Counted from the first letter of the stretch, positions 27,465 through 46,008 are shown. The stretch is DNA of 64,000 nt from Marinobacter sp. (GCF_041595835.1 NZ_JBFHJO010000002.1:78752-142751); one strand, 5' to 3'. Notes: generated by a model not told the origin, from the letters alone. Program-made: numbers and translations.

Positions 27465-28559
27465 TCACCTTTGTACCACAGCCTCCGGCCCGTTCAGCAT
27501 GGCGATCAACGGATTTTTCCGGAAGATGTAATCTCTGAGCAAATAACCTAGCAAAAGTCCGAGCATAAACCCGCCCAGGTGTGCCGCCCAGGCCACGCCG
27601 CCCTGTGCAGTGAACATGCCGAACAGGTTAATCAGGCTCCAGATCAGGAAGTACCAGTGGGGTGCGAGTTTTTTCTGGTAAATGATGATCATGAAAGTAA
27701 GGCTGGCGTGGCGGAACCACATCAGATACAGGCCGAAAAGAGCCGCAATCGCACCGCTGGCGCCAACCAGCAGCAAAGGGCCCTGGCTGCTGTCGAATAC
27801 CAGTAATTCGATCAACGCTGCCACCGCTCCCATGAACAGGTAGAGCCCCAAAAAGGCACTATGGCCCAGGGCATCTTCAAGATTGTCGCCAATAATCCAT
27901 AGGAAATACATGTTGCCGGCCAGATGCATCAGGCCACCGTGGACGAACTGGTAGGTCAATAGTTGCAGGGCAAAGTGTATGGGGCTTTGGGTCTCTGAGT
28001 TCAGCGCCAGGTTCAGGAAAATCCATTCATTCGCTGCCGGTGACAGCAGGCCAGTGCCGAAAATCAGGCCACACAAAACAACCAGCGTTCGCGTAACCCA
28101 GGGGGTTCGATGGGGCTGTATGTTGTACTCCACCGGCATAGCCGTCAGAAACTGGAATAACCAGGACTTCCAGGTCACTTTCTGATTCAAGGTTGTTAGG
28201 GCCTGCTTCAGCCTGGGTGAGTGCATGACCTGATCTATTTCATGTTTATCGAGCCAGACACCATCACAGTCCGGGCAGCAGTCGATTTCAGTAGTGTAGT
28301 GCGTAAGTAACTGATAGTGGGTCATCGGTACCCGGCAACGCCTGCACAAGCGGTCGCTGGTGCGAAGGGCTGGGCCGAGATGAAGCTCGTGACTGTACTG
28401 TTCTATAAACTCGTGCTGCTGTGCAATGGCCTGGTTCAGTGATCCGTCTTCAAACCAGACGCCGTGGCAGTGCCGGCAGTTAAGTATGGCCGGGTTGCTG
28501 GTAGGCGTCAGGCTGCCAATCGTGCAGGAAGGACAAAGTTTAGCGTGTGTTCTGGGCAT
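27465..28559 (-). CDS. rhomboid-family intramembrane serine protease with two N-terminal zinc-ribbon modules
   Basis: N-terminal CPSC...CRHCHGVW and CRRC...CPDCDGVWLD zinc ribbons; C-terminal 6-TM rhomboid core with GASGAIAALFG (catalytic Ser) and AHLGGFMLG (catalytic His). Confidence 0.85.
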   Translation of the reverse strand: MPRTHAKLCPSCTIGSLTPTSNPAILNCRHCHGVWFEDGSLNQAIAQQHEFIEQYSHELHLGPALRTSDRLCRRCRVPMTHYQLLTHYTTEIDCCPDCDGVWLDKHEIDQVMHSPRLKQALTTLNQKVTWKSWLFQFLTAMPVEYNIQPHRTPWVTRTLVVLCGLIFGTGLLSPAANEWIFLNLALNSETQSPIHFALQLLTYQFVHGGLMHLAGNMYFLWIIGDNLEDALGHSAFLGLYLFMGAVAALIELLVFDSSQGPLLLVGASGAIAALFGLYLMWFRHASLTFMIIIYQKKLAPHWYFLIWSLINLFGMFTAQGGVAWAAHLGGFMLGLLLGYLLRDYIFRKNPLIAMLNGPEAVVQR

Positions 28560-28633: not shown

Positions 28634-28963
28634 TTAGTCAGATTCTGTCAGGTAGTTGTGGGCAAAGGCCTGTAAGTCCTCTGAGACACGCTGACGAATG
28701 GTCGCCCGGTCTTGCGGAGCAAGGTTATACTTCCGGGCCAGCAGTTCGAAGTCTTCGTCCTTGAGGGTAATGGTCAGCCGGGGGCGGGCTCTGCCTTTAC
28801 GATAGGGCAGCTGGAGAACCTTGCGTACCATATCGGCGGTGCTCATATCCTGCATGGCAGCAGACACCCGGAAAGCTCTTTGAATATCGTTGGAGAGGTC
28901 GAAGGCCATTTGTACGGCCTGAACCGCCTGCTCTTCTTTTGACCAATCCGGTTTGTTTGCCAT
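28634..28963 (-). CDS. hypothetical small protein, possible ribbon-helix-helix DNA-binding fold
   Basis: 109 aa; segment RPRLTITLKDEDFELLARKYNL resembles an RHH beta-strand/helix; immediately downstream of the PspA-family gene. Confidence 0.5.
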   Translation of the reverse strand: MANKPDWSKEEQAVQAVQMAFDLSNDIQRAFRVSAAMQDMSTADMVRKVLQLPYRKGRARPRLTITLKDEDFELLARKYNLAPQDRATIRQRVSEDLQAFAHNYLTESD

Positions 28964-28971
28964 GAGTATAA

Positions 28972-28994
28972 CCTGAGGGTTATGCCCCCGGCAT
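28972..28994. other. perfect GC hairpin ATGCCCCCG-gcatg-CGGGGGCAT between the PspA-family gene and the small gene (attenuator/terminator candidate)
   Basis: 9-bp perfect stem; T-rich run only on the plus-strand side. Confidence 0.35.
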
Positions 28995-29009
28995 GCGGGG
29001 GCATCGATT

Positions 29010-29705
29010 TTATTGTGCGGACTTATCTTTGAGGCGAGCTAGTACGCTATTTACAGCGTCTTGTTCGCCATCAATGCCGGCAGCTTTCAGCTTTTCGTCC
29101 AGATCGGCACCGGTCAGCTCTTTTTCAAGGCTGGCGTTGGCGGTTTGTCGATCTTCTTCCCGGGCCTGGCGCTCACGGATGCGCTCCAGAGTTTCTTTGG
29201 CGGTGCTCAGGGAGGATTGTTGACTGTTGATGTTGGTGTCAATCTGGGCGGTGGTGCGCAGCACACGCTCGTTGGTTTTCACCACTTGCAGTTCCCTGCG
29301 ATAGTCACCCAGTTGTTTCTCTGCGCGTTGTACTCGCTCTTTCAGCCCTGCAATTCGCTGTTGCAGCAATTCCCGGGTCTGAGTCAGTTCTGCGGCACGG
29401 CGTTCATGGCCAACAATGCGTTCGGCGACTTCTCTGGCCAAATCTTCCTGACCGGCAGCGATGGCCTTGCGGGCATCTTGCTCTCGTTTGCTGGAGCTGT
29501 CTTGTTCAGAGCGAATCTGGCGTGCTAAAGATGCTGATTCAGCCATCAGTCCGGCAAGCTCATGTTTGGCTTGTTTCAGCTCTTGCTCAGCATCGCGTAG
29601 TTCCTGTTCCAGAATACGGTTGCCCTGGTTATCCACTACGGCTTCACCCAGTTCGTTAACGCCACCGCGCATAGCGGTCAGAATCTTTTTCAGTACGGAT
29701 CTCAT
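29010..29705 (-). CDS. PspA/IM30 (ESCRT-III-like) family protein, YjfJ-like
   Basis: 231 aa all-helical coiled coil; N-terminus MRSVLKKILTAMRGGVNELGEAVVD...ILEQELRDAEQEL typical of PspA/IM30; size and partner gene match E. coli yjfJ. Confidence 0.8.
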   Translation of the reverse strand: MRSVLKKILTAMRGGVNELGEAVVDNQGNRILEQELRDAEQELKQAKHELAGLMAESASLARQIRSEQDSSSKREQDARKAIAAGQEDLAREVAERIVGHERRAAELTQTRELLQQRIAGLKERVQRAEKQLGDYRRELQVVKTNERVLRTTAQIDTNINSQQSSLSTAKETLERIRERQAREEDRQTANASLEKELTGADLDEKLKAAGIDGEQDAVNSVLARLKDKSAQ

Positions 29706-29719
29706 GTCTCAGCCCTCAT

Positions 29720-30124
29720 TTAAGCCAGGTAGTCTTCAAATGTCTGTAACAGGTCGATGGCATTTTCGGCCAGTGTGACCAGTTCCTGCATGATTTCGGC
29801 TGTGCCGGAGGTTGGGCTGAGAGCGCCATATACCACATAGTGGTCCCCGGTTTTACCGAGAGAGCTTAGTGGCATGGGAACGCTGATGCGTAGCATGTTT
29901 TCATGCAGGTCCTGTATGCGCTCCGGGTTCAGTTCCTGTTCATTAAAAAGATACGCAAGACACAGAATCTGCGTGTCGGTTACGGTAACGTACACCGGTG
30001 TTTCTTCTGCCCCGGAAACGGTTACTTGCAGTACCGGTTCATCCCCGGAAATGGGCATAACGTCGAAGGTTCGGCCTGCATGGGTAGCGTCTCCCAGGGC
30101 CAGGGTGAGAGTTTGAATATCCAC
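29720..30124 (-). CDS. YjfI-like small cytoplasmic protein (DUF2170-like), partner of the PspA-family gene
   Basis: 134 aa, 14-nt spacing to the downstream PspA-family gene, same order and sizes as E. coli yjfI-yjfJ. Confidence 0.55.
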   Translation of the reverse strand: MDIQTLTLALGDATHAGRTFDVMPISGDEPVLQVTVSGAEETPVYVTVTDTQILCLAYLFNEQELNPERIQDLHENMLRISVPMPLSSLGKTGDHYVVYGALSPTSGTAEIMQELVTLAENAIDLLQTFEDYLA

Positions 30125-30188: not shown

Positions 30189-30205
30189 TGACATTTTATG
30201 TCAAT
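30189..30205. promoter_or_regulatory. perfect palindrome TTGACA-ttttA-TGTCAA in divergent promoter (operator candidate; also a perfect -35 hexamer on both strands)
   Basis: 17-bp perfect inverted repeat in the AT-rich region between yjfI-like (-) and yqiJ-like (+) genes. Confidence 0.5.
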
Positions 30206-30271: not shown

Positions 30272-30327
30272 TCGTTTGACACAAACTGTCAGTCACTCGT
30301 TTTTCCAGAACGGATGTCCAGTCGCGT

Positions 30328-30954
30328 ATGGAAACATTCTTCATTGTAGCTTTCTCTTTTCCAACGGTGGTTTTTTCCGTTCTATTGTGTGTAGCCATTA
30401 TTTATTGGCTGATCTCTCTGCTTGGTATGGGGGATATAGACGCAGACGGTGAAATTGACGCCAGTGGCGACTTTAGCGGCCTGATGGTGACTCTGGGGCT
30501 TCAGGGTGTACCGCTTCCGCTGGTGCTGACGCTTTTGTTCCTGTTTGGCTGGCTGGCCAGTTATTTTATGGATCTTATTTTCGGTGCGCTTGTTCCCGGT
30601 AGTGTGTTGCACTGGCTATTTGGAATTGTCGTTATTTTTGTGGCACTGGTGGTTGGTGTGCTGACTACCGCGGTTGTTGTTCGTCCGCTCAGGCCCCTGT
30701 TCCGTCGCGCATTCTTACCGCCGCTTCAAAAGCGAATTATCGGTACTCCCTGTGTCGTGCTTTCTTCAACGGTGACTGAAACCTCTGGCAGGGGTGAAAG
30801 TATTCTTGATGGTGCTCATCTGGTGCTTCAGATTCGCAGCCATTCGCCGTTGTCCCATCGGGATAGGGCCGTCATTATTGAACATATTCCGGAACACAAT
30901 GCCTGGTGGGTGGTCCCGGAATCGGAATTTCATTCCGGTGATTCTGCCGGATAA
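30328..30954 (+). CDS. NfeD/YqiJ-like inner-membrane protein (TM region plus C-terminal OB-fold), flotillin partner
   Basis: 208 aa; hydrophobic N-terminal two-thirds, C-terminal beta-rich domain (GTPCVVLSSTVTETSGRGESILDGAHLVLQI) typical of NfeD-type partners of SPFH proteins. Confidence 0.7.
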   Translation: METFFIVAFSFPTVVFSVLLCVAIIYWLISLLGMGDIDADGEIDASGDFSGLMVTLGLQGVPLPLVLTLLFLFGWLASYFMDLIFGALVPGSVLHWLFGIVVIFVALVVGVLTTAVVVRPLRPLFRRAFLPPLQKRIIGTPCVVLSSTVTETSGRGESILDGAHLVLQIRSHSPLSHRDRAVIIEHIPEHNAWWVVPESEFHSGDSAG

Positions 30955-30998: not shown

Positions 30999-33002
30999 AT
31001 GGATTTATCGTGGATGATGCCGGCACTGATGACCGTTGGTGTTCTGGTCTTGCTGATACTGGGTGTGCTTACCCTGTTCAAAGCGTTCTATCGTAAAGTA
31101 GATCAGGGCCAGGCACTGATTGTGAACGACCTTTCGCCAACGCCGAAGGTGTACTTCACCGGTGCCATGGTGTTGCCGGTTATCCACCGCGCCGAGACCA
31201 TGAAAATCTCGGTTATCACACTGGAGTTGAACCGTACTGGCAAGGAAGGGTTGATCTGTAAAGATAATTTGCGGGCGGATATCACCGTTGCTTTCTATCT
31301 GCGTGTGAATGAAACCCCGGAAGATGTTCTTCGGGTTGCCAAGTCGGTTGGAGTTGGTCGTGCTTCAGACCGTGATGCGGTGAACGAGTTGTTCAACGCC
31401 AAATTCAGTGAAGCGCTGAAAACCGTGGGTAAGAAGCTGGAGTTTATGCAGCTGTTTGAAGAGCGCCAGCACTTCCGTGACTCCATCATTGAAACCATTG
31501 GTGAAGACCTTAACGGCTATATCCTTGAAGACGTAGCTATCGATTACCTGGAGCAGACGCCAAAAACGTCGCTGGATCCGAACAACATTCTGGATTCCGA
31601 GGGCATCAAGCGGATTACTGAAATTACGGCATTCCATAATGTCGAGACGAACCGCTTAGAGCGTGATCAGGAACTGGAAATTCAGCGCAAGAACGTATCT
31701 GCCCGTGAAGCCTCGCTGGAGCTGGAGCGCAGTCAGGCTGATGCGGAAGCTCGTCAGCGCCGCGAAATTGAAACCCTGCAGGCTCGTGAAACGTCGGAAA
31801 CTGAGCAGGTGCGCGAACAAGAACGAGCCCGGGCTGAAGCTGCTCGCATCAAGACCGATGAGGAGCTGGCCATTGCGGAAGAGAACAAGCAGCGCCAGAT
31901 TGAAATGGCACAAAAAGCCCGTGAACGTGCGGTACAGATTGAAGAAGTACGGATTCGCCAGGCTCGCGAACTTGAAGATGTAAACCGTGAACGTGCGGTT
32001 GAAATCGAGCGGATTGGTATGGAAAAAGCGCTGGAAGGTGAGCGCAAAGAAATTGCCGACATCACCAGCCAGCGGATTGCGGTTGAGCGCAACGTGGCGG
32101 AAGAGGAAGAGAACATCAAGGATGTTCGCAACCGTTCCGAAGCTGAGCGTTTGAAAGTTACGAAAGTGGTGGCGGCTGAAGCCGATGCGGATGAACTGAA
32201 ACTGAAGGATGTGAAAGCCGCAGAAGCCGCGTTTGAACGCTCTAAACTGGAAGCAGAACAGATTCGTGTTACGGCGCAGGCGGAGCTGGATGCCGCTGAG
32301 AAGCAAGCCATCGCTGATGAAAAACGGGCTCGTGGTCGTCAGGCTATGTCTGCTTCTGACGGGTTGGCTGAAGCACAGGTTCGAGAAGCTCAGGCCTCTG
32401 CCATTCGTGCGGATGGCCTGGCCCGTGCCGAGGTTAAAACCGCCACAGCCAAAGCGGATGAAGACGCTGGTATGGCGGAAGTTCGAGTGCTGGAACAGCG
32501 GCTTGAAACGGAAGCTATGGGTGAAGAGAAGCTGGGTCTGGCGAAGGCCGATGCCCGTAAGGCCATGGTTCTGGCTGAGGCCGAAGGTGAGGAGCGTATG
32601 GGCCATGCGAAAGCGGAAGCCCGTGAAGCTATGGCGAAGGCTGAAGCTTCTGGCTTGGTAGAAAAACTGAAAGCGTACGATGGAATGTCTGAAGAAGCCC
32701 GTCACTTTGAAGAATTCCGTATGAACCTGGAAGTTCATGAGAAAGAAGTAATGGCCAGGATTGAAGCTCACCAGACGGGCATTCTGGAAAATGGCCGGGT
32801 AATGGCTGCCGCATTGAAGGATGCCAAGTTTGAAATGATCGGTGGTGATGGCGGTATCTTCGAGAAGTTCGCCCAGGGAATGGGTTATGGCAAGAGCGTA
32901 CAGGGCGTCCTGGACAAAAGCCCATCGCTACAGGCTGCTTTAGCGGGCATTGCCGGGCGGGTTGCGGGTGACAAGTCCGGCGATACCTCTGAGTCGGCTT
33001 AA
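30999..33002 (+). CDS. flotillin-family SPFH/band-7 protein with long Ala/Glu-rich coiled-coil (YqiK-like)
   Basis: N-terminal TM plus SPFH domain, then ~400 aa of EA-rich heptad repeats. Confidence 0.85.
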   Translation: MDLSWMMPALMTVGVLVLLILGVLTLFKAFYRKVDQGQALIVNDLSPTPKVYFTGAMVLPVIHRAETMKISVITLELNRTGKEGLICKDNLRADITVAFYLRVNETPEDVLRVAKSVGVGRASDRDAVNELFNAKFSEALKTVGKKLEFMQLFEERQHFRDSIIETIGEDLNGYILEDVAIDYLEQTPKTSLDPNNILDSEGIKRITEITAFHNVETNRLERDQELEIQRKNVSAREASLELERSQADAEARQRREIETLQARETSETEQVREQERARAEAARIKTDEELAIAEENKQRQIEMAQKARERAVQIEEVRIRQARELEDVNRERAVEIERIGMEKALEGERKEIADITSQRIAVERNVAEEEENIKDVRNRSEAERLKVTKVVAAEADADELKLKDVKAAEAAFERSKLEAEQIRVTAQAELDAAEKQAIADEKRARGRQAMSASDGLAEAQVREAQASAIRADGLARAEVKTATAKADEDAGMAEVRVLEQRLETEAMGEEKLGLAKADARKAMVLAEAEGEERMGHAKAEAREAMAKAEASGLVEKLKAYDGMSEEARHFEEFRMNLEVHEKEVMARIEAHQTGILENGRVMAAALKDAKFEMIGGDGGIFEKFAQGMGYGKSVQGVLDKSPSLQAALAGIAGRVAGDKSGDTSESA

Positions 33003-33010
33003 AAAGCCCA

Positions 33011-33050
33011 TGGCACCGCTGCTTCTTAAGAGAGTGGTGCCAGTTTTTAT
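33011..33050 (+). terminator. putative Rho-independent terminator after flotillin gene
   Basis: TGGCACC-N18-GGTGCCA stem followed by GTTTTTATT. Confidence 0.5.
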
Positions 33051-33085: not shown

Positions 33086-36000
33086 ATGTCGACGGATCGC
33101 TCCGGCCTTGAAAGCATCATTCAGGAAGGCTCTGCTTTTGAAACCATTCAGCGTCGGCTGAAAGAGCAGGGGGGGCAACTGCGCTCGCAGGTATCCGGGT
33201 TGAATCAGACCCGTGAAGAAATTTTCGGCAGTGCCAGTATGAGTGTGCTCGGGCGGGCCCGGGTCAGAACCGAGAATAACGCCATTCCACGTGATGTGGT
33301 GCGTCTGGGTGACAAGCTGTTGTTTGGCTTTAACCTGCAACTGGGGTTGCGTAAAACCCTGGAAATAGACGATGTCTTTTGCCTGTATCACCTGAACGAC
33401 GGTGATGATGGCTTTGAAATGACCGAAGCCACCATTGAAGGGACTTTCCTGAAGGATGCCCGGTTTGCCACTGACTTCCGGGAGCTGCAGCAGTACTACA
33501 ACACGGCCACGCTGTCTCAGCTGGTGATCCTCAAAGGCATGCTGCTGATGGCGTTTCGCATCGGCGACAAGCTGGATGATCTGCGGATTTTCCGCTGGGA
33601 GCTGACGCCGGGTGGCGATGTCAGTCGCTATATCGACAATCGGGGTGAGCGGGATCTGACTTTCCCTGAACGCTTCAGTTTTCCCTGGAAACCCGTTGGT
33701 CGTGATTTGCAGGTTCAGGGCCGCTCTCCGCACCTGAACATTGCTGACACCTTGTTTGTGGATAACCTGCGGGGTGACATTACCTTCAAGGTGGAAAACA
33801 ATACTGCCACCGGGGAAGGCATTTATGCAGATCCGGTAGAATCGGACTCTCAGTCTCTGGACGACGCCACGTTTGAATACGCCGACCTGGGCGAGATTCT
33901 TCTGGTGCGGATTCTGCCCTTCAATGAAAAACTTTGGCGCTATTACCTGTTCAACCGTACCCAGCGAAAAATTGAACGGGTGGATAGCATGGCGGGTTCG
34001 GTGGCATCGCTGCCGGATAATCATGGCCTGATCTTCCCCTCCGGCTACTACCTCACTACCGGTGAACTGAAAACCTTCCAGATCCCGGAAGGCGACTTCC
34101 GCCTCAAGCGTTCGTTGCGCTCGCCTAACGGTGAGGATGTGCTGTATGTGTTTTTTGAGCAGCTTACCGGGCAGGTCATTCTGTTCCGCTACAATCTGAT
34201 CCGTAAACAAGCGGATGTGCCGTTGATCGGCCATGGGTTTGCGCTCTTTGAAAATGGCCATCTGGTGGTTTTCAATGCGGATAATGAGCCGACGCTGGTG
34301 CACCCGCTGCAGGTTTGGGATACGCCGTTTACCTCGGAGAGTTTCCATGCACAGGCCAGTGTTGCTAATGATTCTGAACTGGCCCGTATCGGTAACCCGG
34401 ATTTGGTGCGCGGCATTGCTGAACTGAATACGGTTATTACCCTGGTAGAAGCCAAGAGCGCCAGTGAGCGTCACTTTACAGCACTGATCCGTACCGTAGA
34501 CCGTGTTCTCGACCAGTTTTACTGGCTTACAGCGAGGCAGGATGAAGCGCTGTTTGCTGGCTTGCATGAGCAGCTGAGCACGATTCGCAATACCGCCGAG
34601 TTGGTGCTGGACGAATACGAAAAAGTGCAGAGCATCCGGGCGCAAACAGAAATGGCTATCAGTGAAGTGGCCGATGTTCAGAGTGCCCTGATGCGCGATC
34701 TGAAACCGGATAGCTGGAAAGCGCCAGATCAGTTTGTGGGTTATCTGGCCAGGCTTCGGGAACACCGGGGCCGGGTGCGGACGCTGAGTGATCGCCGCTA
34801 CGCAGACAAAAACCGCATAGAGGCCCTGGAAAAGGAGCTGGCGGAGGCGGAAGAGAGGCTGACGGATCGAACGTTCCGTTTCCTTGCTTCGCCCGAAGCT
34901 TTAGAGGGTTACCGCAATACCCTGGCAGAATTGCAAGCCGCACTGGCGGAAGCCGGAAGCCGGGATGCTTTGAAAAAGATTGTAGAGCGATACCGGGAGC
35001 TGACCACCGGTCTGGATATGATTCAGGGCATGCTGGCTTCCATGGCGGGTGATGATGCTGCGCTGGAAACGGCCATCACCGATAACATTTCGGGGATATA
35101 CGCCAGTATCAATCAGCAGCGTTCAGAAGCAGAAATTCGCCTGAAAGAGCAGGGCAGTGCCGAGGCGCGGGCTCAGTTTGCCGCCCGGATCCGGCTGTTT
35201 GAGCAGAGTCTGGCAAACGGCGTCAGTGCGCTTTCAGATGTGCGGGAATGTGATGGTTTGATGACCCGCATGCTTGATCAGCTACAAGAGCTCGAGAGCC
35301 AGTTTGGTGAGTACGATGAGTTTCTTGCTGCCGTTCTGGAACAGCGTGAAAACGCCCACGAAAGTATTGAGGCCCGGCGTCAGCAGCTTCAGGATCAGCA
35401 GCAACGCCGGGTAACAACGTTGACGGATGCGGCTGAACGTATTCTGAAAAACGTCAGTCGCCGAACGGAACGTTTTTCCAGCCCGGAAGAACTGCACGCT
35501 TTCTTTGCCTCCGATGCCATGGTGGCGCGCCTGCGCAGCATGGCTGAAGAGCTTCGTGACCTGGGCGCAGCTATGGAAGCTGACGATTGCCTGGGGCAGC
35601 TGAAAGCCACTCAGGATACCGCTCTGCGCAGCGTGCGGGACAAAGCTGACATCTTCGAAGAAGGTGGCGCGGTTATTCGTCTCGGCAGGCATAAGTTCAG
35701 CGTAAACCAGCAAGAGCTGGATCTCACTCTGATTCCCCGGGATGACCATGTGCTGCTACACCTCACCGGCACCCAGTATTACGAACGGCTGGATGAGCCG
35801 GAACTGGATCGCCTGCGGGGTTACTGGAACATGAGCCAGCCGTCTGAGTCCGACAAGGTTTACCGGGCTGAGTATCTGGCAGCGCTGGTGATTGAAGAAT
35901 TCCGGAAGTCGTCTGATTTACCGGTGAACGTTGCCGATGTTGAAGAGCTGACTGGTTATATTCGTCATTTTGCTTCGCCCCGTTATCGTGAAGGCTACGA

Positions 36001-38338
36001 GAAAGGTATCCATGACCACGATGCCGCATTGCTTGTCAGAACCTTGTGGCCCGCCATTCAAAACGCCGGACTGCTGCGCTTCAGCCCGAATGCCCGTGCG
36101 CTGGCTATGCTGTTCTGGGCAGAGCTGATTCAACAGAAGATTTCTGCACAACAGCTGCGTTCTCGCTGCCTGTCGGCTGGCATACTGAGGCGCATGATGC
36201 AGTCCAATGAATTGCTGCAGTCTCTGGAGCAGGAGCTTGGGCCAAAGTTGTCGGAATTTGTTGAGATTCATGAGCTCAGATTAACCGAAAAAGGCAGTGC
36301 CGAACGCACTCTGCTGAAATCCGCAGCCCAGTATCTGGTTTTACAGTTGGCAGAAGAAGCAGAAGCCTTTGAAATCACTCGCTATGCCGGTGAGCTGGCC
36401 GAAGGCTTTATTGAAGCCCTGAAGAGGGATAATCAGTTTGCCCAGTACGAGACGGCGTTAAATGTGGTGGCCGGAAAGCCTGCCGCGCGCTGGAGCATCA
36501 CCAGCCATTGGGTAAAAGCCTGGATGGGCAAGGCCAACCAGCAGCATTTACTGCATTACCTGCCGGAAGTGGTGGCGGTGCTCAACGCCGGAGACGCTAT
36601 CTCTACGGCCGTACGCAGTGTTGAACTGGCGTTTGAGGTTGACGGTTTGCTGGGTCAGCATGCCAGCATTAACGATCGGTCCCTGAGCCTGCAGCTGGAT
36701 GAGTTCGATGAACGCCTGCGTTATCATCAGCAGGAAGTCATTCCCGGTTGGCAGCAGTTACAGGAAGTCCGTCATAAGGTTTTGGCAAAATGGCGCGACC
36801 AGCTGCGCCTTGAGGAATATCGGCCCCGGCCGCTGTCGTCGTTTGTGCGCAATAAACTGATCAGTGAGAGCTATCTGCCAATCATTGGCGACAACCTGGC
36901 CAAACAGATGGGCACTGCAGGTGAAGACCGTCGCACAGACCAGTCCGGCTTGCTGATGATGATCTCGCCGCCAGGTTACGGTAAAACCACCCTGATGGAA
37001 TATGTCGCTAACCGCCTGGGCCTGATCTTCATGAAGATCAACTGCCCGAGTTTAGGCCACGATGTCACCTCGCTGGACCCGGAAAAAGCCCCCCATTCCA
37101 CCGCCGAAGCGGAGCTGGTCAAGCTTAACCTCGCTTTGGAGATGGGCAACAACGTGATGTTGTATCTGGATGATATCCAGCATACCCATCCTGAATTTCT
37201 GCAGAAATTCATTTCCCTGTGTGACGGCACCCGGCGCATTGAAGGCGTATGGCGTGGTCGAACCAGTACGTATGACATGCGTGGCAAGCGGTTCTGCGTG
37301 GTGATGGCCGGTAATCCCTATACCGAAAGCGGCGAAATGTTCAAAGTGCCGGACATGCTGGCGAACCGGGCGGATATCTACAATTTGGGTGATGTGTTGT
37401 CGGGCATGGAGCATGCCTTTGAGTTGTCTTACATAGAGAATAGCCTCAGTGCCAACCGGGTGTTGGCACCTTTGGCGACCCGGGGTATGGCAGACTTCTA
37501 TCGGTTTGCGGATCTGGCCGAAGGCAAAACAGTGGCGGATTCGGATTTCGAGCACGACTACAGTGCTGCCGAGCGGGATGAAATTGTTTCCCTGCTGAAG
37601 AAGATGATGCGGGTGCGGGAAACCGTTCTGCGGGTAAACCAGGCGTACATTGCTTCCAGTGCTCAGGCTGAAGCCTATCGTACTGAGCCTGCCTTCAAGT
37701 TGCAGGGCAGCTACCGGAACATGAACAAACTGGCGGAAAAGCTGTCGCCGGTCATGAGTGACAAAGAACTGGAAGCCCTGATTGACGATCACTACCAGGG
37801 TGAATCTCAGCTGCTGACTCAGGGCGCGGAAGAGAATTTGCTTAAACTCAAGCAGATGCGAGGCACCTTAACCGAAGCTGAAGCTGCCCGGTGGCAGGCT
37901 ATCTGTGAAGAATATCGCCGGCGGCAGCAGGCTGGAGGTGACGAAGAAACCGGCGTGAAAGTGGTACGCCAACTGGGTGTGATTGCTGAACAAATGCAGC
38001 AATTGGGACAACAGTTGGCCGCAGGCCTGGAAAGTCAGAAAGGTTCTGAACCAGATCTCGGTCAAGCCCTGGGGCAACTGTCCCGCTCCCTGGAAACCGG
38101 CCTGACCGAAGGTTTACAGTCTGTGCAACTGAGCCCCTCAGTGACGGTAAATCTGGATAGTCCTCCACAGGTTGGCGAAGCCTTGATGGCCTTTGCCCGG
38201 ATTTTTGAGGAATCCATCGTGCCATTGGTGAAAACCATGGACGGTAAGTTGGACCTGGATCTGAAAACCCAAACGGAAATGAGCCGGGTGTTGAAAGTGA
38301 TTCGGGAGCTGCAAGATCGATTGCTGGAACGGAAATAG
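33086..38338 (+). CDS. giant (1750 aa) multidomain protein: N-terminal beta-rich region, long central helical region, C-terminal MoxR-like AAA+ P-loop ATPase module
   Basis: Single uninterrupted ORF; Walker A ISPPGYGKTTLMEY, Walker B VMLYLDDIQH, MoxR/AAA_5-type sensor segment FCVVMAGNPYTESGEMFKVPDMLANRADIYNL around aa 1290-1460; no close match to any family I can name. Confidence 0.85.
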   Translation: MSTDRSGLESIIQEGSAFETIQRRLKEQGGQLRSQVSGLNQTREEIFGSASMSVLGRARVRTENNAIPRDVVRLGDKLLFGFNLQLGLRKTLEIDDVFCLYHLNDGDDGFEMTEATIEGTFLKDARFATDFRELQQYYNTATLSQLVILKGMLLMAFRIGDKLDDLRIFRWELTPGGDVSRYIDNRGERDLTFPERFSFPWKPVGRDLQVQGRSPHLNIADTLFVDNLRGDITFKVENNTATGEGIYADPVESDSQSLDDATFEYADLGEILLVRILPFNEKLWRYYLFNRTQRKIERVDSMAGSVASLPDNHGLIFPSGYYLTTGELKTFQIPEGDFRLKRSLRSPNGEDVLYVFFEQLTGQVILFRYNLIRKQADVPLIGHGFALFENGHLVVFNADNEPTLVHPLQVWDTPFTSESFHAQASVANDSELARIGNPDLVRGIAELNTVITLVEAKSASERHFTALIRTVDRVLDQFYWLTARQDEALFAGLHEQLSTIRNTAELVLDEYEKVQSIRAQTEMAISEVADVQSALMRDLKPDSWKAPDQFVGYLARLREHRGRVRTLSDRRYADKNRIEALEKELAEAEERLTDRTFRFLASPEALEGYRNTLAELQAALAEAGSRDALKKIVERYRELTTGLDMIQGMLASMAGDDAALETAITDNISGIYASINQQRSEAEIRLKEQGSAEARAQFAARIRLFEQSLANGVSALSDVRECDGLMTRMLDQLQELESQFGEYDEFLAAVLEQRENAHESIEARRQQLQDQQQRRVTTLTDAAERILKNVSRRTERFSSPEELHAFFASDAMVARLRSMAEELRDLGAAMEADDCLGQLKATQDTALRSVRDKADIFEEGGAVIRLGRHKFSVNQQELDLTLIPRDDHVLLHLTGTQYYERLDEPELDRLRGYWNMSQPSESDKVYRAEYLAALVIEEFRKSSDLPVNVADVEELTGYIRHFASPRYREGYEKGIHDHDAALLVRTLWPAIQNAGLLRFSPNARALAMLFWAELIQQKISAQQLRSRCLSAGILRRMMQSNELLQSLEQELGPKLSEFVEIHELRLTEKGSAERTLLKSAAQYLVLQLAEEAEAFEITRYAGELAEGFIEALKRDNQFAQYETALNVVAGKPAARWSITSHWVKAWMGKANQQHLLHYLPEVVAVLNAGDAISTAVRSVELAFEVDGLLGQHASINDRSLSLQLDEFDERLRYHQQEVIPGWQQLQEVRHKVLAKWRDQLRLEEYRPRPLSSFVRNKLISESYLPIIGDNLAKQMGTAGEDRRTDQSGLLMMISPPGYGKTTLMEYVANRLGLIFMKINCPSLGHDVTSLDPEKAPHSTAEAELVKLNLALEMGNNVMLYLDDIQHTHPEFLQKFISLCDGTRRIEGVWRGRTSTYDMRGKRFCVVMAGNPYTESGEMFKVPDMLANRADIYNLGDVLSGMEHAFELSYIENSLSANRVLAPLATRGMADFYRFADLAEGKTVADSDFEHDYSAAERDEIVSLLKKMMRVRETVLRVNQAYIASSAQAEAYRTEPAFKLQGSYRNMNKLAEKLSPVMSDKELEALIDDHYQGESQLLTQGAEENLLKLKQMRGTLTEAEAARWQAICEEYRRRQQAGGDEETGVKVVRQLGVIAEQMQQLGQQLAAGLESQKGSEPDLGQALGQLSRSLETGLTEGLQSVQLSPSVTVNLDSPPQVGEALMAFARIFEESIVPLVKTMDGKLDLDLKTQTEMSRVLKVIRELQDRLLERK

Positions 38339-38363: not shown

Positions 38364-38380
38364 CTAGACAATTGGTCTAG
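38364..38380. promoter_or_regulatory. TetR-family operator candidate CTAGAC-AATTG-GTCTAG upstream of the tetR-family gene
   Basis: 6-bp perfect inverted arms 20 bp upstream of ATG 38400; same half-site repeated at 39029 and 39115. Confidence 0.55.
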
Positions 38381-38399
38381 CCGGGCTTAGAATTTCGCC

Positions 38400-38993
38400 A
38401 TGGAACCAAAAGTAGCAAGTCATGATGTGCGCAGCCACATCCTGGAAACAGCCCAAACCATCATCAGTGGCAAGGGATTCAGTGCTGTCGGATTAAACGA
38501 AATCCTGCAGACTGCCGGGGTGCCTAAAGGATCTTTCTATCACTATTTCGGGTCCAAAGAAGCCTTTGGTGAAGAGTTGCTCAAGAGCTATTTTGCCGAT
38601 TACCAAGAGACTCTGGATGCCATGCTTTCTCGTACAGGCCTGTCAGGTGCGGAGCGCCTGATCGGCTACTGGGAGTCCTGGCTGGAAACCCAGTCGGCCT
38701 GCGACCCGAAAGGAAAATGCCTCACTGTTAAGCTTGCCGCAGAAGTCAGTGATTTGTCGGAGCCGATGCGTGTTGTCCTGGAGCGGGAAACGGCTCGCGT
38801 CATTGCTCGCTTGGAGCAGGCGATTGAGGATGGTATCGCTGATGACTCTTTACCGGCTTCTTTAGATGCAAAGTTAACGGCGTCAACGCTTTACCAGTTG
38901 TGGCTGGGGGCGAGCCTGCGCAGCAAAATCACTCGTGACCGCGAGCCCATGGAGTGTGCGTTGGCGGCAACGCGCGCATGGCTTGGTCTGTGA
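38400..38993 (+). CDS. TetR/AcrR-family transcriptional regulator
   Basis: N-terminal HTH ILETAQTIISGKGFSAVGLNEILQTAGVPKGSFYHYF is the TetR_N signature; 197 aa. Confidence 0.85.
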   Translation: MEPKVASHDVRSHILETAQTIISGKGFSAVGLNEILQTAGVPKGSFYHYFGSKEAFGEELLKSYFADYQETLDAMLSRTGLSGAERLIGYWESWLETQSACDPKGKCLTVKLAAEVSDLSEPMRVVLERETARVIARLEQAIEDGIADDSLPASLDAKLTASTLYQLWLGASLRSKITRDREPMECALAATRAWLGL

Positions 38994-39028
38994 GGCTGCG
39001 ACAGAATAAAATCATACTATGATCCATG

Positions 39029-39043
39029 TAGACGACTGGTCTA
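39029..39043. promoter_or_regulatory. second TAGAC-N5-GTCTA operator copy (embedded in extended GACGAC...GTCGTC palindrome)
   Basis: TAGACGACTGGTCTA. Confidence 0.45.
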
Positions 39044-39068
39044 GTCGTCAGTTAGACTGAGAACAAGT

Positions 39069-39095
39069 AGTAAAGAATAAGCCGATCTGAACGGC
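39069..39095 (+). terminator. Rho-independent terminator of the tetR-family transcript
   Basis: AAGCCG-atctgaa-CGGCTT followed by TTTTATTTT. Confidence 0.65.
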
Positions 39096-39114
39096 TTTTT
39101 ATTTTCCCAGACAA

Positions 39115-39129
39115 TAGACGACCGGTCTA
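39115..39129. promoter_or_regulatory. third TAGAC-N5-GTCTA operator copy, 14 bp upstream of the alcohol dehydrogenase start
   Basis: TAGACGACCGGTCTA. Confidence 0.5.
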
Positions 39130-39142
39130 AGAGTGAGGCTTC

Positions 39143-40300
39143 ATGAATAATTTTGAATTCTACAACCCAACACGAATCGTATTTGGAAAAGACACGATTC
39201 AGCGCCTGAATAGCCTGGTGCCTGCTGATGCGCGGGTACTGTTGTTGTTTGGGGGTGAAAGTGCGAAGAAAACAGGCACTATCGATGAGGTCAGGCAAGC
39301 ATTGGGCGACCGGCACGTTGCAGAGTTTGGTGGCATTGAGCCAAACCCGACCTACGAAACTCTGATGAAAGCGGTGGCTTTAATCGAGCAGGACCAGTTC
39401 GACTTTTTGCTGGCGGTTGGCGGCGGCTCGGTGATTGACGGCACCAAGTTTGTGGCCGCCGCCGTTGGTTTTGATGGTGATCCCTGGAGCATTTTGGAAA
39501 AGCAGGGGCGGAATATTACCCAGGCCATTCCGTTTGGAACCGTATTGACACTACCGGCCACGGGCTCTGAAATGAATAACGGAGCTGTGGTGACTAATAA
39601 GGCGCTGCAGGCAAAGCTTCCGTTTTTCAGCCCGCTGATTTATCCCGCGTTCTCTATTCTGGACCCGGTTAAAACCTTCACGCTGCCGCTCAAGCAGGTC
39701 AGTAACGGGGTTGCCGATGCGTTCACTCATATTGTTGAGCAATACCTGACTTATCCGGCTAATGGGTTGGTTCAGGATCGTTTTGCTGAGGGCTTGCTGC
39801 AGACGCTCGTTGAGATCGGTCCGAAAGTACTGGAAGACCCGGAAAACTACGAGTTGAGAGCGAACCTGATGTGGGTGGCGACATTGGCTTTGAATGGATT
39901 GATTGGTGCGGGCGTACCTCAGGATTGGGCAACCCATATGGTTGGCCATGAGTTGACGGCGCTGTACGGCATTGACCATGCCCGGACGCTGGCTATTGTA
40001 CTGCCGGGTATGCTCGAGGTGCGCCGTGAGTCCAAAGCTGACAAGTTGCTGCAGTATGGCGAGCGGGTTTGGAACATTCGGGAAGGCTCACCAGAAGAAC
40101 GTATTGAAAAGGCAATCCAGGCGACTCGCCAGTTTTTTGAGAGCCTGTCTATTCCCACCCGATTGCCAGATTATGGGCTCGATCAGAGCTCCATCGACGA
40201 TATCATCGGCCAACTTGAACACCATGGTATGACCAAGCTCGGAGAGCACGGAGATGTGACTCCGGATGTCAGCCGTCGTGCTCTGGAAGCAAGCCTGTAA
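39143..40300 (+). CDS. iron-containing (group III) alcohol dehydrogenase
   Basis: 385 aa; GGGSVIDGTKFVAAA nucleotide-binding motif and conserved His-rich metal site region (WATHMVGHELTALYGIDHA). Confidence 0.9.
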   Translation: MNNFEFYNPTRIVFGKDTIQRLNSLVPADARVLLLFGGESAKKTGTIDEVRQALGDRHVAEFGGIEPNPTYETLMKAVALIEQDQFDFLLAVGGGSVIDGTKFVAAAVGFDGDPWSILEKQGRNITQAIPFGTVLTLPATGSEMNNGAVVTNKALQAKLPFFSPLIYPAFSILDPVKTFTLPLKQVSNGVADAFTHIVEQYLTYPANGLVQDRFAEGLLQTLVEIGPKVLEDPENYELRANLMWVATLALNGLIGAGVPQDWATHMVGHELTALYGIDHARTLAIVLPGMLEVRRESKADKLLQYGERVWNIREGSPEERIEKAIQATRQFFESLSIPTRLPDYGLDQSSIDDIIGQLEHHGMTKLGEHGDVTPDVSRRALEASL

Positions 40301-40316
40301 CGGAGGAGAAAAGAAC

Positions 40317-41345
40317 ATGGAGAATTCATCGTTGATAAATCGTCAGTGGGTTTTGAACCAGCGCCCGAAAGGCGCGCCGGCACCGGAAGATTTTAAACTG
40401 GTGGAGAGTGCGGTACCGAGCCTCAATGAAGGTGAGGTGTTACTCAAAACCCGCTACTTATCCTTGGACCCGTACATGCGGGGGCGAATGAGCGAGGCTC
40501 CTTCTTATGCTCCTTCTCTGAACATCGGCGAGGTGATTGTTGGTGGCACCGTATCGGAAGTGGTGGAATCAAAACATTCCGGGTTTTCGAAGGGTGATCA
40601 GGTTCTGTCTGCCAGTGGGTGGCAGGAATACGCGATATCTGACGGGTCAGGGCTGATGTCGGTCGAAGGCTTGCCTGAGCCTTCATACGCCTTGAGTCTG
40701 ATGGGGATGCCTGGCTTTACGGCGTACCACGGGTTGCTGAACATTGGCGAGCCAAAGCCTGGAGAAACAGTTGTCGTCGCCTCAGCCAGTGGTGCGGTAG
40801 GCTCCGTGGTTGGCCAAATTGCAAAACTGAAAGGCTGCCGGGTTGTGGGTATTACCAGTGGTGGTGACAAACAGCGGTACGTTCAGGAAACACTGGGCTT
40901 TGATGTGAGCCTGGACCGGCGCTCACCGGATTTTTCGGCAGAACTCGCTAAAGCCGTGCCGAATGGGATTGATGTGTATTACGAGAACGTGGGGGGTGCT
41001 GTTTTCGACGCGGTTCTGCCGCTGCTGAACGATTTCGCCCGAATTCCGGTGTGTGGTTTGATTGCCCACTACAATGCAACCGAATTACCTCAGGGGCCGG
41101 ATCGTGTGCCCATGCTTATGGGCATGATTCTGCGCAAACGGATTCGGATGCAGGGGTTCATTATCATGGATCATTACGAAACCGGGTACGCGCCGTTCGC
41201 CAAGGAAATGAGTGCATGGCTGAAGGCGGGCCAGATTCGTATTAAGGAAGATCGGGTGCAGGGCATAGAAGCCGCGCCGGACGCGTTTATTGGTCTTTTG
41301 GAAGGAAAGAACTTCGGTAAAGTGGTGGTGGATTTCGGGGCATAG
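40317..41345 (+). CDS. NADP-dependent medium-chain oxidoreductase (YncB/CurA/alkenal reductase family)
   Basis: N-terminal MDR oxidoreductase domain then Rossmann fold ASASGAVGSVVGQIAKLKGCRVVG; GGAGGAGAA RBS. Confidence 0.85.
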   Translation: MENSSLINRQWVLNQRPKGAPAPEDFKLVESAVPSLNEGEVLLKTRYLSLDPYMRGRMSEAPSYAPSLNIGEVIVGGTVSEVVESKHSGFSKGDQVLSASGWQEYAISDGSGLMSVEGLPEPSYALSLMGMPGFTAYHGLLNIGEPKPGETVVVASASGAVGSVVGQIAKLKGCRVVGITSGGDKQRYVQETLGFDVSLDRRSPDFSAELAKAVPNGIDVYYENVGGAVFDAVLPLLNDFARIPVCGLIAHYNATELPQGPDRVPMLMGMILRKRIRMQGFIIMDHYETGYAPFAKEMSAWLKAGQIRIKEDRVQGIEAAPDAFIGLLEGKNFGKVVVDFGA

Positions 41346-41919: not shown

Positions 41920-41969
41920 TCACTCCGTCACGGGGGTATCACTAACAGGACGTTTTGAGGCAAAGGATT

Positions 41970-42854
41970 ATGCCGCTCTTCTTTATCCAAACTGCCAGAT
42001 CTTGGGTTCTGGCAGTTTGTCATTTATGTTTTAACGCATCTTTTTTTTATTCATCGTTAGTTCTTGCTCAGGCACCGGCAATTCCGTTGGCCAATGTCTA
42101 CCATCAGGGCGTTGATCTTCAGGAGTATTGGGTTAGTGAAAAGCTTGATGGTGTTCGTGCCTACTGGGACGGTGAGCAATTCTGGTCCCGGGGTGGGCAC
42201 GTTTATGCTGCACCGCCTTGGTTTACCAGGCAATTTCCGGATCATCCACTGGACGGAGAGCTGTGGGCCGGGCGAGAGCAGTTTGCTCAAGTATCCGGTG
42301 TGGTGCGAAAGCAACAACCCGAACACAATGCGTGGCGGAAGATTCGCTTCCATGCTTTTGATTTGCCTCTGGAAAATACACCGTTTGAGAAGCGCTATCA
42401 GCGTTTGAAACGGCTGGTGAACGAGGCTGGAACGAAATATCTGGTGCTGGTCAGGCAGAGCCCGGTGGCCAGCCACAATGCATTGATGGCAGAGCTGAAC
42501 CAGATTGTTGCGGCGGGCGGTGAGGGCCTGATGCTCAAGCGTAAAACCGGCCTGTATAAAGCCGGGCGCTCAGATGATTTATTGAAGGTGAAAACCTTTG
42601 CTGATGCGGAGGCGGTCGTGGTAGCGCACATACCGGGAAAAGGTAAGTACCTGGGCATGATGGGTGCGTTGGAGGTGGAGCTGGGGAATGGCCGCCGATT
42701 TCGCATTGGTACGGGCTTTCGTGATGCTGACCGACGTAATCCGCCGAGCATCGGAGCAACGGTGACTTTCCGGTATCGAGGCTTCACGGCCACGGGGTTG
42801 CCCCGTTTCGCCAGCTTTCTTCGTGTACGGGATGACGAGCCCGGGGGCCGTTAG
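41970..42854 (+). CDS. ATP-dependent DNA ligase, minimal LigE-type with N-terminal signal peptide (predicted periplasmic)
   Basis: Adenylation motif I KLDGVR, motif pattern EGLMLK/KxK; cleavable-looking signal peptide ending LAQA; AAAGGA RBS before ATG 41970. Confidence 0.8.
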   Translation: MPLFFIQTARSWVLAVCHLCFNASFFYSSLVLAQAPAIPLANVYHQGVDLQEYWVSEKLDGVRAYWDGEQFWSRGGHVYAAPPWFTRQFPDHPLDGELWAGREQFAQVSGVVRKQQPEHNAWRKIRFHAFDLPLENTPFEKRYQRLKRLVNEAGTKYLVLVRQSPVASHNALMAELNQIVAAGGEGLMLKRKTGLYKAGRSDDLLKVKTFADAEAVVVAHIPGKGKYLGMMGALEVELGNGRRFRIGTGFRDADRRNPPSIGATVTFRYRGFTATGLPRFASFLRVRDDEPGGR

Positions 42855-45124: not shown

Positions 45125-45229
45125 GCTTTGTTCCTGCTGTCTGGTAAGATTCGGAAATCCTACCTTTGAGGGTCTGGTTAATGCTAGTGCCGCGTCAGGT
45201 AAACTTAAGAACGATATGGAGTAAGGTTA

Positions 45230-46008
45230 TGAGCGAGACCTCTTTTGACTGGCAAAACACGCCCGCGGCTGTATGGCGCCGTCACCGGGCAGGCCTCAGG
45301 GCGATTCGCCGGTTGGATTCAATCAGCTGGGATGATCTCACCGGCATCAGTCAGCAAAAAGAGGCGCTGGCTCGCAATACTGAGCGTTTCCTGAATCTGC
45401 AGCCTTCCAATAATGTGTTGCTTTGGGGGTCTCGTGGGACGGGTAAATCTTCGCTCATTAAAGCGTTGCTGAATCGTTACCATGAACAGGGGTTGCGCAT
45501 AATTGAAGTCGATAAAGATGACCTGGTGAATCTGCCGGAAATTGTCGATGATATTTGCGATCTGCCGTTCCGGTTTTTGATCTTCTGTGATGATCTTTCT
45601 TTTGATGTGGGTGAATCTGGTTATAAGGCGCTGAAAAGTATACTGGAAGGCTCGTTGGAATTGCCCCCGGAGAACGTTCGGGTATACGCCACATCTAACC
45701 GTCGTCACCTGATGCCTGAATTTATGAGCGACAACTTGAAAAGCGAAATGCGTGATGGCGAGTTACATCCTGCAGAAGCGATTGAGGAGCAGGTTTCGCT
45801 GGCGGATCGATTCGGGCTTCAGCTTTCGTTTTACCCCTTCACTCAGGATACTTATCTGCAGGCAGTGGACGCGCTCTTTCCTGAGGTGACTGATCGGGAG
45901 CAGTTGCACATTGAAGCCGTGCGTTTTGCAACCAGTAAAGGTGTTCGCAACGGCCGTTCAGCCCAGCAGTTCTATCGTCAGTTTGCTGGCGATCCTAGAT
46001 TTAGCTGA
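45230..46008 (+). CDS. predicted AAA-type ATPase (DUF815-like)
   Basis: P-loop GSRGTGKSSL, Walker B FLIFCDDLSF; ~260 aa; start at MSETSFDW (ATG 45230) rather than ORF-track 45166. Confidence 0.6.

Follow-up and report, generated by a model that had tools for sequence, protein, structure and literature searches.

The question raised by positions 33,086 to 38,338 of a 64,000-nucleotide (nt) stretch of Marinobacter sp. DNA (GCF_041595835.1, NZ_JBFHJO010000002.1:78752-142751) concerns the identity and the role of a giant ATPase. The whole stretch is termed the window here and is numbered from its first letter. The gene lies directly downstream of a flotillin gene and an NfeD-type gene, and a first-pass annotation of the sequence had proposed that they belong to a membrane-remodeling, membrane-repair or possibly anti-phage machine that had not been described. 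It is demonstrated below that the giant ATPase is not a discovery, but belongs as an ordinary member to a system already known from computational descriptions. Regarding its role, the reading favored here, with a probability of roughly 0.55, is that it would act as a cytoplasmic ring ATPase on the flotillin scaffold, remodeling flotillin and/or PspA assemblies, its candidate substrates, at the inner membrane. The features on which the argument turns are as follows.

33086..38338, + strand: giant AAA+ ATPase gene, 1750 amino acids (aa), ATG start
30999..33002, + strand: YqiK-type flotillin, 667 aa, with an N-terminal transmembrane (TM) segment, a divergent SPFH domain and a long E/A-rich coiled coil
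30328..30954, + strand: YqiJ/YuaF-like (NfeD-type) membrane protein, 208 aa, identified by profile comparison
33017..33039, + strand: weak terminator-like hairpin in the 83-nt spacer between the flotillin and ATPase genes, 8 pairs of which 3 are G-C, tail CCAGTTTTTA

Family identity and linkage to flotillin

The single open reading frame (ORF) of 5.25 kb that had been proposed was recovered with exactly the same limits and is translated into 1750 aa without interruption. A Shine-Dalgarno-like AGGAAG is located 8 nt 5' of the ATG. By exact look-up, the product is identical to the RefSeq/NCBI entry WP_372964220.1 (Marinobacter sp., "DNA repair ATPase"). In Pfam, DUF3686 (PF12458, 'ATPase involved in DNA repair') covers aa 32-479 over profile positions 2-448 of 448 (E = 1.5e-169, 564.7 bits), DUF7902 (PF25472) is matched at full length, 1-85 of 85, by aa 604-688 (nt 34895-35149; E = 3.1e-17, 63 bits, cutoff 26), and AAA (27.3 bits) and AAA_5 (25.1 bits) match aa 1290-1413, weakly but above their cutoffs. 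The statement that the parts outside the ATPase match no family is refuted by the first two of these, though both are uncharacterized families. A large protein search returned 3425 homologues at E ≤ 1e-10, the closest of which are Marinobacter proteins of 87-91% identity that are likewise named 'DNA repair ATPase', and a filter-free search with the N-terminal 480 aa as query yielded 663 clusters at 50% identity. Long members among the best 150 clusters listed are of about 1600-2000 aa with the DUF3686 domain at the N-terminus, and the shorter entries look like fragments. The window protein fits the family length of about 1600-1900 aa, and its C-terminal AAA+ domain displays the family-invariant motifs SPPGYGKTT and AGNPYTE. 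No match to the gene was found in E. coli genomes by megablast, and the whole protein gave only P-loop-level matches in the PDB by phmmer, with E values of at least 0.05. There is good support for the gene being the orthologue, in Marinobacter, of a family that is widespread and recognized in databases, composed of a DUF3686 beta-propeller, a DUF7902 helical arm and a C-terminal AAA+ domain.

The system has also been described. The same operon type, including a "beta-propeller + coiled-coil + AAA-ATPase", was reported in silico by Ravi et al. (mSystems 2024, PMC11237479), which, together with the presence of the exact protein in RefSeq, refutes the view that nothing of the kind was on record. 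The operon of that study sometimes carries a PLD hydrolase, and abbreviated three-gene forms lacking PspA are stated to be 'more widely distributed'. In comparison with its representative in Dokdonia donghaensis (ANH61663.1), the window displays the same gene set, the same order of YqiJ-like, flotillin and ATPase genes and the same ATPase architecture, the Dokdonia ATPase having been compared by description only. Both the optional PLD (HKD) gene and the three-gene form are reproduced among the loci surveyed below. Nothing essential differs, but in Marinobacter, Hahella and one Cellvibrionaceae genome the PspA unit has been turned round, so that it is divergent instead of co-directional, and in the window it additionally carries a tandem ribbon-helix-helix (RHH) gene and a fusion of a zinc ribbon (ZnR) with a rhomboid protease. 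The ATPase is not mentioned in the SPFH evolution paper or in the Psp paper by Popp et al.

Neither the 667-aa nor the 208-aa protein of the window has a direct match in Pfam, NCBIfam or PDB sequences, and for that reason it was at first doubtful that they form a flotillin/YqiJ pair. Family profiles of both, built from 24 orthologues each and compared by hhalign, settled the matter. The 667-aa family is aligned with E. coli YqiK at a probability of 99.9% (E = 1.3e-34, 404 columns, 30% identity), and the 208-aa family with E. coli YqiJ at 94% (E = 1.1e-7, 138 columns), the support for the latter being only moderate because there is no direct Pfam match. The pair named by the first-pass annotation is real, and is shown only by such family profiles. 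It should be noted that Band_7 of Pfam is matched by 5 of the 24 flotillin orthologues (best E = 5e-11), while the window flotillin and the other 19 escape it even at E ≤ 1, yet profile-profile comparison clearly identifies them as homologues of YqiK. The flotillins linked to the ATPase are also longer, at about 650-750 aa, than E. coli YqiK (553 aa), and their SPFH domain is divergent enough that most are missed by Band_7; they are therefore likely to be under-annotated in SPFH genome surveys.

Conservation of the linkage was analyzed by scanning one genome per species with the two invariant AAA+ motifs as patterns, by which at least 584 species genomes were confirmed as relatives, including those of Pseudomonas, Stenotrophomonas maltophilia, Xenorhabdus, Myxococcus and Marinobacter. 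The survey comprised 83 loci, namely the best 80 of these and three found by exact protein look-up, with neighbors scored by iterated profiles of the window proteins and by unbiased clustering of all nearby ORFs. A flotillin gene is located immediately upstream on the same strand in 79 of the 79 loci with upstream DNA, the other four ending at a contig edge, and it is preceded by a YqiJ-like gene in 75-76 loci. Flotillin and ATPase genes are usually separated by less than 150 nt, with overlapping ORFs in four loci. In the window, nothing more than the weak terminator-like hairpin that had been noted is present in this gap. The linkage spans Gamma- and Betaproteobacteria, Myxococcota, Actinomycetota, Planctomycetota, Acidobacteriota and a metagenome-assembled genome of Clostridia, and it is also kept in a 28%-identity relative, in Hahella and in Vreelandella. 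The predicted association with flotillin and NfeD was therefore confirmed, across at least six phyla. E. coli yqiJ-yqiK and B. subtilis yuaF-floT, by comparison, are two-gene units; the upstream genes of the window are homologues of YqiJ and YqiK, whereas the E. coli pair is followed by the sib/ibs loci and hldE, without an ATPase.

Domain architecture and nucleotide site

AlphaFold2 (AF2) models were made for aa 1-560 and aa 860-1750 of the giant ATPase. The domains, all encoded on the + strand, are as follows.

33233..34330, + strand, aa ~50-415: predicted N-terminal beta-propeller, core of DUF3686, with a helix at aa 17-47 before it and a helical bundle at aa 418-560 after it
34523..35662, + strand, aa 480-859: helical, probable coiled-coil arm including DUF7902 (Pfam; model helices 493-559, modeled to aa 560)
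35663..36805, + strand: small five-stranded beta domain (aa ~860-905) and compact all-alpha domain (aa ~925-1240), then a long connecting helix (AF2 model, both domains with pLDDT >90)
36947..37675, + strand, aa 1288-1530: AAA+ core and lid, with the alpha/beta core at 1288-~1440 (Pfam AAA/AAA_5, alignment and model)
37676..38335, + strand, aa 1531-1750: C-terminal helical tail (alignment and model)

The model of aa 1-560 (pLDDT 86, pTM 0.82) places about 30 beta-strands at 50-415, between the long helix at 17-47 and the bundle at 418-560. The top 50 listed Foldseek matches in the PDB are mostly propeller proteins (WD40, prolyl oligopeptidase, clathrin terminal domain, Vps18, TolB), with E values of 4e-7 to 4e-5 and low TM-scores, and on the basis of this model aa ~50-415 can be read as a divergent beta-propeller. 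The region of aa 560-859 is rich in E, A, L, R and Q and attracts only spurious matches of coiled-coil type, to SMC_prok_A (16.8 bits, cutoff 729) and to LmuB, which extend over aa 510-827. In the model of aa 860-1750 (m8590d4d30b68; overall pLDDT 79), the beta and all-alpha domains of aa 860-1240 contain many residues that are invariant in an alignment of 29 homologues, among them G867, F871, G974, H976 and D979. The first part of the tail is conserved (R1532, E1534, P1535, QGSYRNM), and its last ~100 aa are variable and of low model confidence. The architecture outlined at first, with a beta-rich N-terminus, a helical middle, an AAA+ domain and a helical tail, holds in its general form, but the supposed 800 aa of coiled coil are interrupted by the beta domain at ~860-905 and the all-alpha domain at ~925-1240.

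The catalytic residues were examined in the same 29 homologues, which are 32-67% identical to the window protein. Walker A, G1297-Y-G-K-T-T1302 (nt 36974-36991), including K1300, is invariant, as are D1362-D1363 of Walker B (LYLDD, nt 37160-37174) and G1409-N-P-Y-T1413 followed by R1428, where N1410 represents sensor-1 and R1428 the putative arginine finger. Walker A and B lie 60 residues apart within one AAA+ domain. All three motifs that had been pointed out, GYGKTT, LYLDD and the NPY...R segment, are hence present and do not vary across the alignment.

The clade of this module is less simple. In the model, a beta-hairpin is observed between alpha3 and beta4 (residues 1384-1397), in the pre-sensor-1 position, and the helix-2 region appears as a loop with a short helix, no hairpin or helix-2 insert being evident in what is a model and not a solved structure. 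The best structural matches of the C-terminal model by Foldseek are NorQ and CbbQ (MoxR type; TM on target 0.47-0.56), RuvB, MCM, Clp/Hsp100 and dynein, and no classical-clade AAA protein occurs among the top 50 matches listed. A profile search against PDB sequences ranks Rix7, NVL and p97 first, over the P-loop region only. With respect to the MoxR models, AAA_5 (cutoff 22) is exceeded, generic AAA (PF00004) scores higher, and there is no AAA_3 match. A partner gene with a VWA domain, as is conserved for MoxR proteins, was found neither among the recurrent neighbors of the 83 loci nor in the window. The sensor-1/arginine-finger segment AGNPYTESGEMFKVPDMLANRA ('AGNPYTESGE..F.VPDMLANRA') resembles the MoxR consensus, 'ATQNP.E.EGTY.LPEAQLDRF'. 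The giant ATPase resembles MoxR-type proteins (RavA, NorQ, CbbQ; AAA_3/AAA_5) in its AAA_5 score above cutoff and in the NorQ/CbbQ structural match, but it is five times larger and carries a propeller and a long helical arm. The module may be regarded as a divergent lineage of the pre-sensor-1-hairpin group that is MoxR-like in part, its membership of MoxR proper being unproven and not adopted here. Of the earlier assignment as a MoxR-like AAA+, the fold and the NP...R segment stand; the absence of an evident helix-2 insert and of a VWA partner, and a P-loop profile nearest to Rix7/NVL/p97, do not agree with it.

A proposed role in remodeling membrane assemblies

The genes that recur beside the cassette bear on its role. 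Those of the window are located upstream, on the opposite strand.

29720..30124, − strand: YjfI-like DUF2170 protein (Pfam DUF2170, E = 2.5e-34; BLASTP against E. coli YjfI, E = 3e-12)
29010..29705, − strand: YjfJ-type PspA/IM30 (ESCRT-III superfamily) protein (PspA_IM30, E = 9e-42; E. coli YjfJ, 32% identity over 225 aa, E = 7e-23)
28634..28963, − strand: 109-aa protein with two strand-helix-helix repeats seen in the alignment (weak RHH_10 and FitA-like RHH matches)
27465..28559, − strand: fusion of ZnR and rhomboid protease, 364 aa, with which the divergent pspA-side unit ends (Pfam Zn_ribbon_TFIIB in two stretches, and Rhomboid)

The cassette order is accordingly yqiJ-like, yqiK-type flotillin and giant AAA+, divergent to a yjfI(CesT-like)-yjfJ(PspA)-RHH-(ZnR-rhomboid) unit. 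YjfI-like DUF2170 proteins have been placed in the CesT/Tir chaperone superfamily (Ravi et al., PMC11237479). The PspA/ESCRT-III-like neighbor that had been suspected is borne out by the matches above; with the canonical PspA model (cutoff 243), the protein reaches only 19 bits. In the survey, the YjfI and PspA pair is found within 10 kb in 40-41 of the 83 loci, where it mostly opens a same-strand operon of five genes, the PspA unit being divergent in Marinobacter, Hahella and a Cellvibrionaceae genome; in the 28%-identity relative a PspA_IM30 gene lies 6 kb away. A PLDc_2 hydrolase gene lies 3' of the ATPase gene in 13 loci, mostly of Pseudomonas type (e.g., L009 15966-16673). TelA (toxic anion resistance) lies 3' of the ATPase gene in 12 loci, of Lysobacter, Stenotrophomonas, Luteimonas, Thermomonas and relatives (e.g., L021 15987-17090 and L061 16041-17186); this link was not seen in Ravi et al. 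(PMC11237479), where the PLD link is present. Rhomboid occurs in 9 loci, apart from the ZnR-rhomboid fusions, of which there are 4, and in 8 loci the cassette is flanked by a separate zinc-ribbon protein of 183 aa. In 8 loci a stand-alone rhomboid lies immediately 3' of the ATPase on the same strand (e.g., L009 15340-15915, L010 15214-15780 and L001 13318-13869), with PLDc_2 next in 6. The fusion is present in Marinobacter (the window and loci L004, L006 and L007) and in the Cellvibrionaceae locus L043; the full fusion profile found 4 loci only, and unbiased clustering revealed rhomboid and ZnR as separate genes elsewhere. The fusion suggests that zinc ribbon and rhomboid work together with the cassette. 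No DNA-repair or known defense gene is recurrent among the neighbors of the 83 loci. As the recurrent neighbors, PspA/YjfJ, YjfI, rhomboid, PLD and TelA, are all membrane-related, the membrane-remodeling or envelope-stress role suggested earlier is a reasonable reading.

No TM-like segment was detected in the giant ATPase (maximum 19-residue Kyte-Doolittle mean of 1.5), and it is therefore predicted to be soluble and cytoplasmic. In the favored mechanism, the protein would form a ring by means of its AAA+ domain, the propeller and helical arm would dock on the cytoplasmic face of the flotillin/YqiJ scaffold, and ATP hydrolysis would assemble, disassemble or otherwise remodel membrane-bound protein assemblies under envelope stress. 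The assemblies in question would be the flotillin cage and, in loci that possess it, the YjfJ/PspA polymer. SPFH cages partner AAA+ machines (HflK/C-FtsH, prohibitin-m-AAA), and in B. subtilis, PspA is recruited to the membrane by the SPFH protein YdjI. By analogy only, giant ATPase and flotillin may be viewed as an SPFH-scaffold-plus-AAA+ pair, like HflK/C-FtsH and prohibitin-m-AAA in logic, a scaffold and a ring AAA+ at the inner membrane, not homologous, and with a genetic coupling as tight as that of hflKC. FtsH is a membrane-anchored classical-clade AAA protease that is enclosed on the periplasmic side, whereas the giant ATPase appears soluble, lacks a protease domain, displays a pre-sensor-1 hairpin and has a cytoplasm-facing flotillin as its partner. 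The inference published by Ravi et al. (2024) is in line with the remodeling of membrane assemblies.

Several observations weigh against this mechanism. Walker B is D-D and not the usual D-E, which could result in slow hydrolysis, such that the protein serves as a nucleotide-dependent switch or scaffold instead of a motor. The ring is deduced from conserved motifs only: the invariant Walker A and B, sensor-1 and the putative trans-acting arginine argue that the protein probably oligomerizes by way of its AAA+ domain, and the arginine-finger segment (aa 1422-1439) has a pLDDT below 50 in the monomer model. More distant family members than the best-matching 80 of at least 584 and the additional three could break the flotillin linkage. 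Furthermore, no experimental study of any family member was found when the literature was searched for DUF3686 (PF12458), for DUF7902 and for a 'DNA repair ATPase' with flotillin.

The alternatives differ chiefly in the substrate that they assign to the ATPase. It may be a functional analogue of Vps4 that mainly disassembles and recycles the YjfJ/PspA polymer, flotillin and YqiJ being only the joining membrane platform. The frequency of the YjfI-YjfJ pair, the PspA_IM30 gene near the ATPase of so distant a relative as that of 28% identity, and the promoter region with conserved candidate operators that PspA unit and cassette share in the window all fit this proposal. Vps4 with ESCRT-III is limited to archaea and to eukaryotes, and archaeal ESCRT loci also join SPFH and WD40-type propellers (Makarova et al. 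2024); according to a 2025 review, a Vps4-like ATPase appears absent in bacteria and the regulation of PspA polymerization is unexplained. In common with Vps4/CdvC and ESCRT-III, an AAA+ is linked here to an ESCRT-III-superfamily protein, with SPFH and propeller as in some archaeal loci. PspA, however, is linked in about 50% of loci against 100% for flotillin and is not an obligate partner, no MIT or Vps4_C match was found in the giant ATPase by Pfam, and the pre-sensor-1 hairpin and structural neighbors of the NorQ/CbbQ/RuvB/MCM/Clp kind differ from the classical clade of Vps4. A Vps4 homologue was rejected on the basis of the same features, and even a functional analogue is considered rather unlikely. 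SPFH proteins scaffold membrane proteases, and a ring that unfolds or extracts clients sequestered by flotillin and passes them to rhomboid or to the PLD lipid hydrolase would resemble HflK/C-FtsH or the SLP2-PARL-YME1L complex. Clp unfoldases among the structural neighbors, the rhomboid directly 3' of the ATPase with PLDc_2 after it, and the ZnR-rhomboid fusions of Marinobacter and Cellvibrionaceae are compatible with such quality control; rhomboid or PLD neighbors nevertheless occur in only ~10-15% of the surveyed loci, no protease domain is fused to the ATPase, and pore-loop residues were not identified. This proposal is judged slightly less probable again.

The last two alternatives concern phage and DNA. 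An anti-phage or abortive-infection function in the envelope has generic features in its favor, namely a large coiled-coil NTPase, an occasional PLD neighbor and the historical link between PspA and phage secretin stress. In PADLOC-DB 2.0, however, only LmuB of coiled-coil type (E = 0.0015-0.04) and LmuB/JetC at E values of at least 5e-4 were returned, with nothing for the partners, and IteA of NCBIfam scored 15.5 bits against a cutoff of 510. Every Marinobacter locus among the matches listed carries the gene, at 72-92% identity and with the same gene arrangement, which suggests a vertically inherited core gene and not a patchy defense island, and the flanks in the window are housekeeping/redox genes and a type VI secretion gene. 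A known anti-phage system was rejected, no cassette protein having a significant PADLOC-DB 2.0 match, and the defense function voiced in the first-pass annotation is now very improbable. Hardly any credence can be given to the SMC/SbcC/Rad50-type DNA-repair ATPase that the NCBI/UniRef and Pfam names imply. The weak SMC_prok_A match that could be cited for it is confined to the helical arm and falls far below its cutoff, nucleotide is predicted to be bound by a contiguous AAA+ fold toward the C-terminus and not by a split ABC head, the conserved neighbors are all membrane-associated with no DNA-repair gene among them, and no literature backing for the name was found. This candidate was rejected, as it fails every defining feature. 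The wording 'ATPase involved in DNA repair' is that of COG0419/SbcC, a label commonly gained by coiled-coil proteins through spurious similarity, and the name looks like a coiled-coil artifact.

Candidate regulation, flanking genes and meaning

The locus appears to possess its own regulator. Two candidate operators were found in the divergent intergenic region.

30189..30203, no strand: palindrome TGACATTTTATGTCA, candidate operator 1
30277..30291, no strand: palindrome TGACACAAACTGTCA, candidate operator 2, 88 bp from operator 1

The pattern TGACA-N5-TGTCA occurs as two copies only in the 64-kb window, both within the 203-bp region between the yjfI-like and yqiJ-like genes. The 109-aa RHH family is present in 15 of the 83 loci, always next to PspA. 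Across the 83 loci (1.84 Mb), the palindrome is found in 9 of the 15 loci with the 109-aa gene and in 0 of the 68 without it, and where coordinates were compared (L004-L008, L033, L043, L062 and L079) it is located either shortly upstream of the yjfI-like gene or at its annotated start. This co-occurrence argues that the tandem-RHH protein is the likely regulator of the locus and TGACA-N5-TGTCA its putative operator, a dedicated repressor/operator pair. With two conserved palindromes in the shared promoter region, the pspA-side and cassette units of the window are predicted to be co-regulated. In the divergent region, no sigma-54 (PspF-type) promoter was seen by eye and a sigma-70 consensus scan gave no site.

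In the 46-nt gap between the pspA-like and RHH genes, a strong, G+C-rich hairpin is located at 28982-29004 (9 pairs, 7 of them G-C), with its T-run on the + strand and the genes on the − strand; a function as attenuator or RNA-stability element is conceivable. Directly 3' of the ATPase, at 38400-41345 (+), lie genes for a TetR regulator (nearest to CurR), for an Fe-alcohol dehydrogenase resembling YqhD and for an NADPH curcumin/enone reductase of CurA type, with a sigma-70-like promoter at 38365-38393. They make up an unrelated redox/detoxification unit, by which the cassette is bounded on this side. Further downstream are a small ATP-dependent DNA ligase (41955-42854, +, 299 aa) and a DUF815 AAA-type ATPase (45166-46008, +, 280 aa), for which no link to the cassette was seen. 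On the other side, a type VI secretion gene of TssM/IcmF type (22956-26549, +, 1197 aa) is separated from the ZnR-rhomboid gene by about 1 kb, and the upstream part of the window is probably taken up by a type VI secretion cluster. The giant ATPase of Vreelandella is directly followed by a PAAR-motif gene (L002 13008-13286), which may be a coincidence.

The analysis corrects the misleading database name 'DNA repair ATPase', and the window provides a clean, complete example of the system, with regulator, operators, PspA pair, scaffold, ATPase and rhomboid. A bolder proposal, tentative and on balance doubtful, is that the cassette is the missing bacterial ESCRT-type machine, in which a coat-like propeller, an arm and an AAA+ ring, convergent with Vps4, would use ATP to take apart or reshape PspA/YjfJ polymers and flotillin cages at the cytoplasmic membrane. 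If true, it would give bacteria an energy-dependent cycle of membrane repair or vesiculation, which current reviews state to be lacking. The giant ATPase family is the obvious candidate for the energy source behind the assembly and recycling of bacterial flotillin cages and PspA/ESCRT-III polymers, because it is strictly co-encoded with flotillin, accompanied by PspA in half of the loci, invariant in its catalytic residues and present in at least 584 species genomes.

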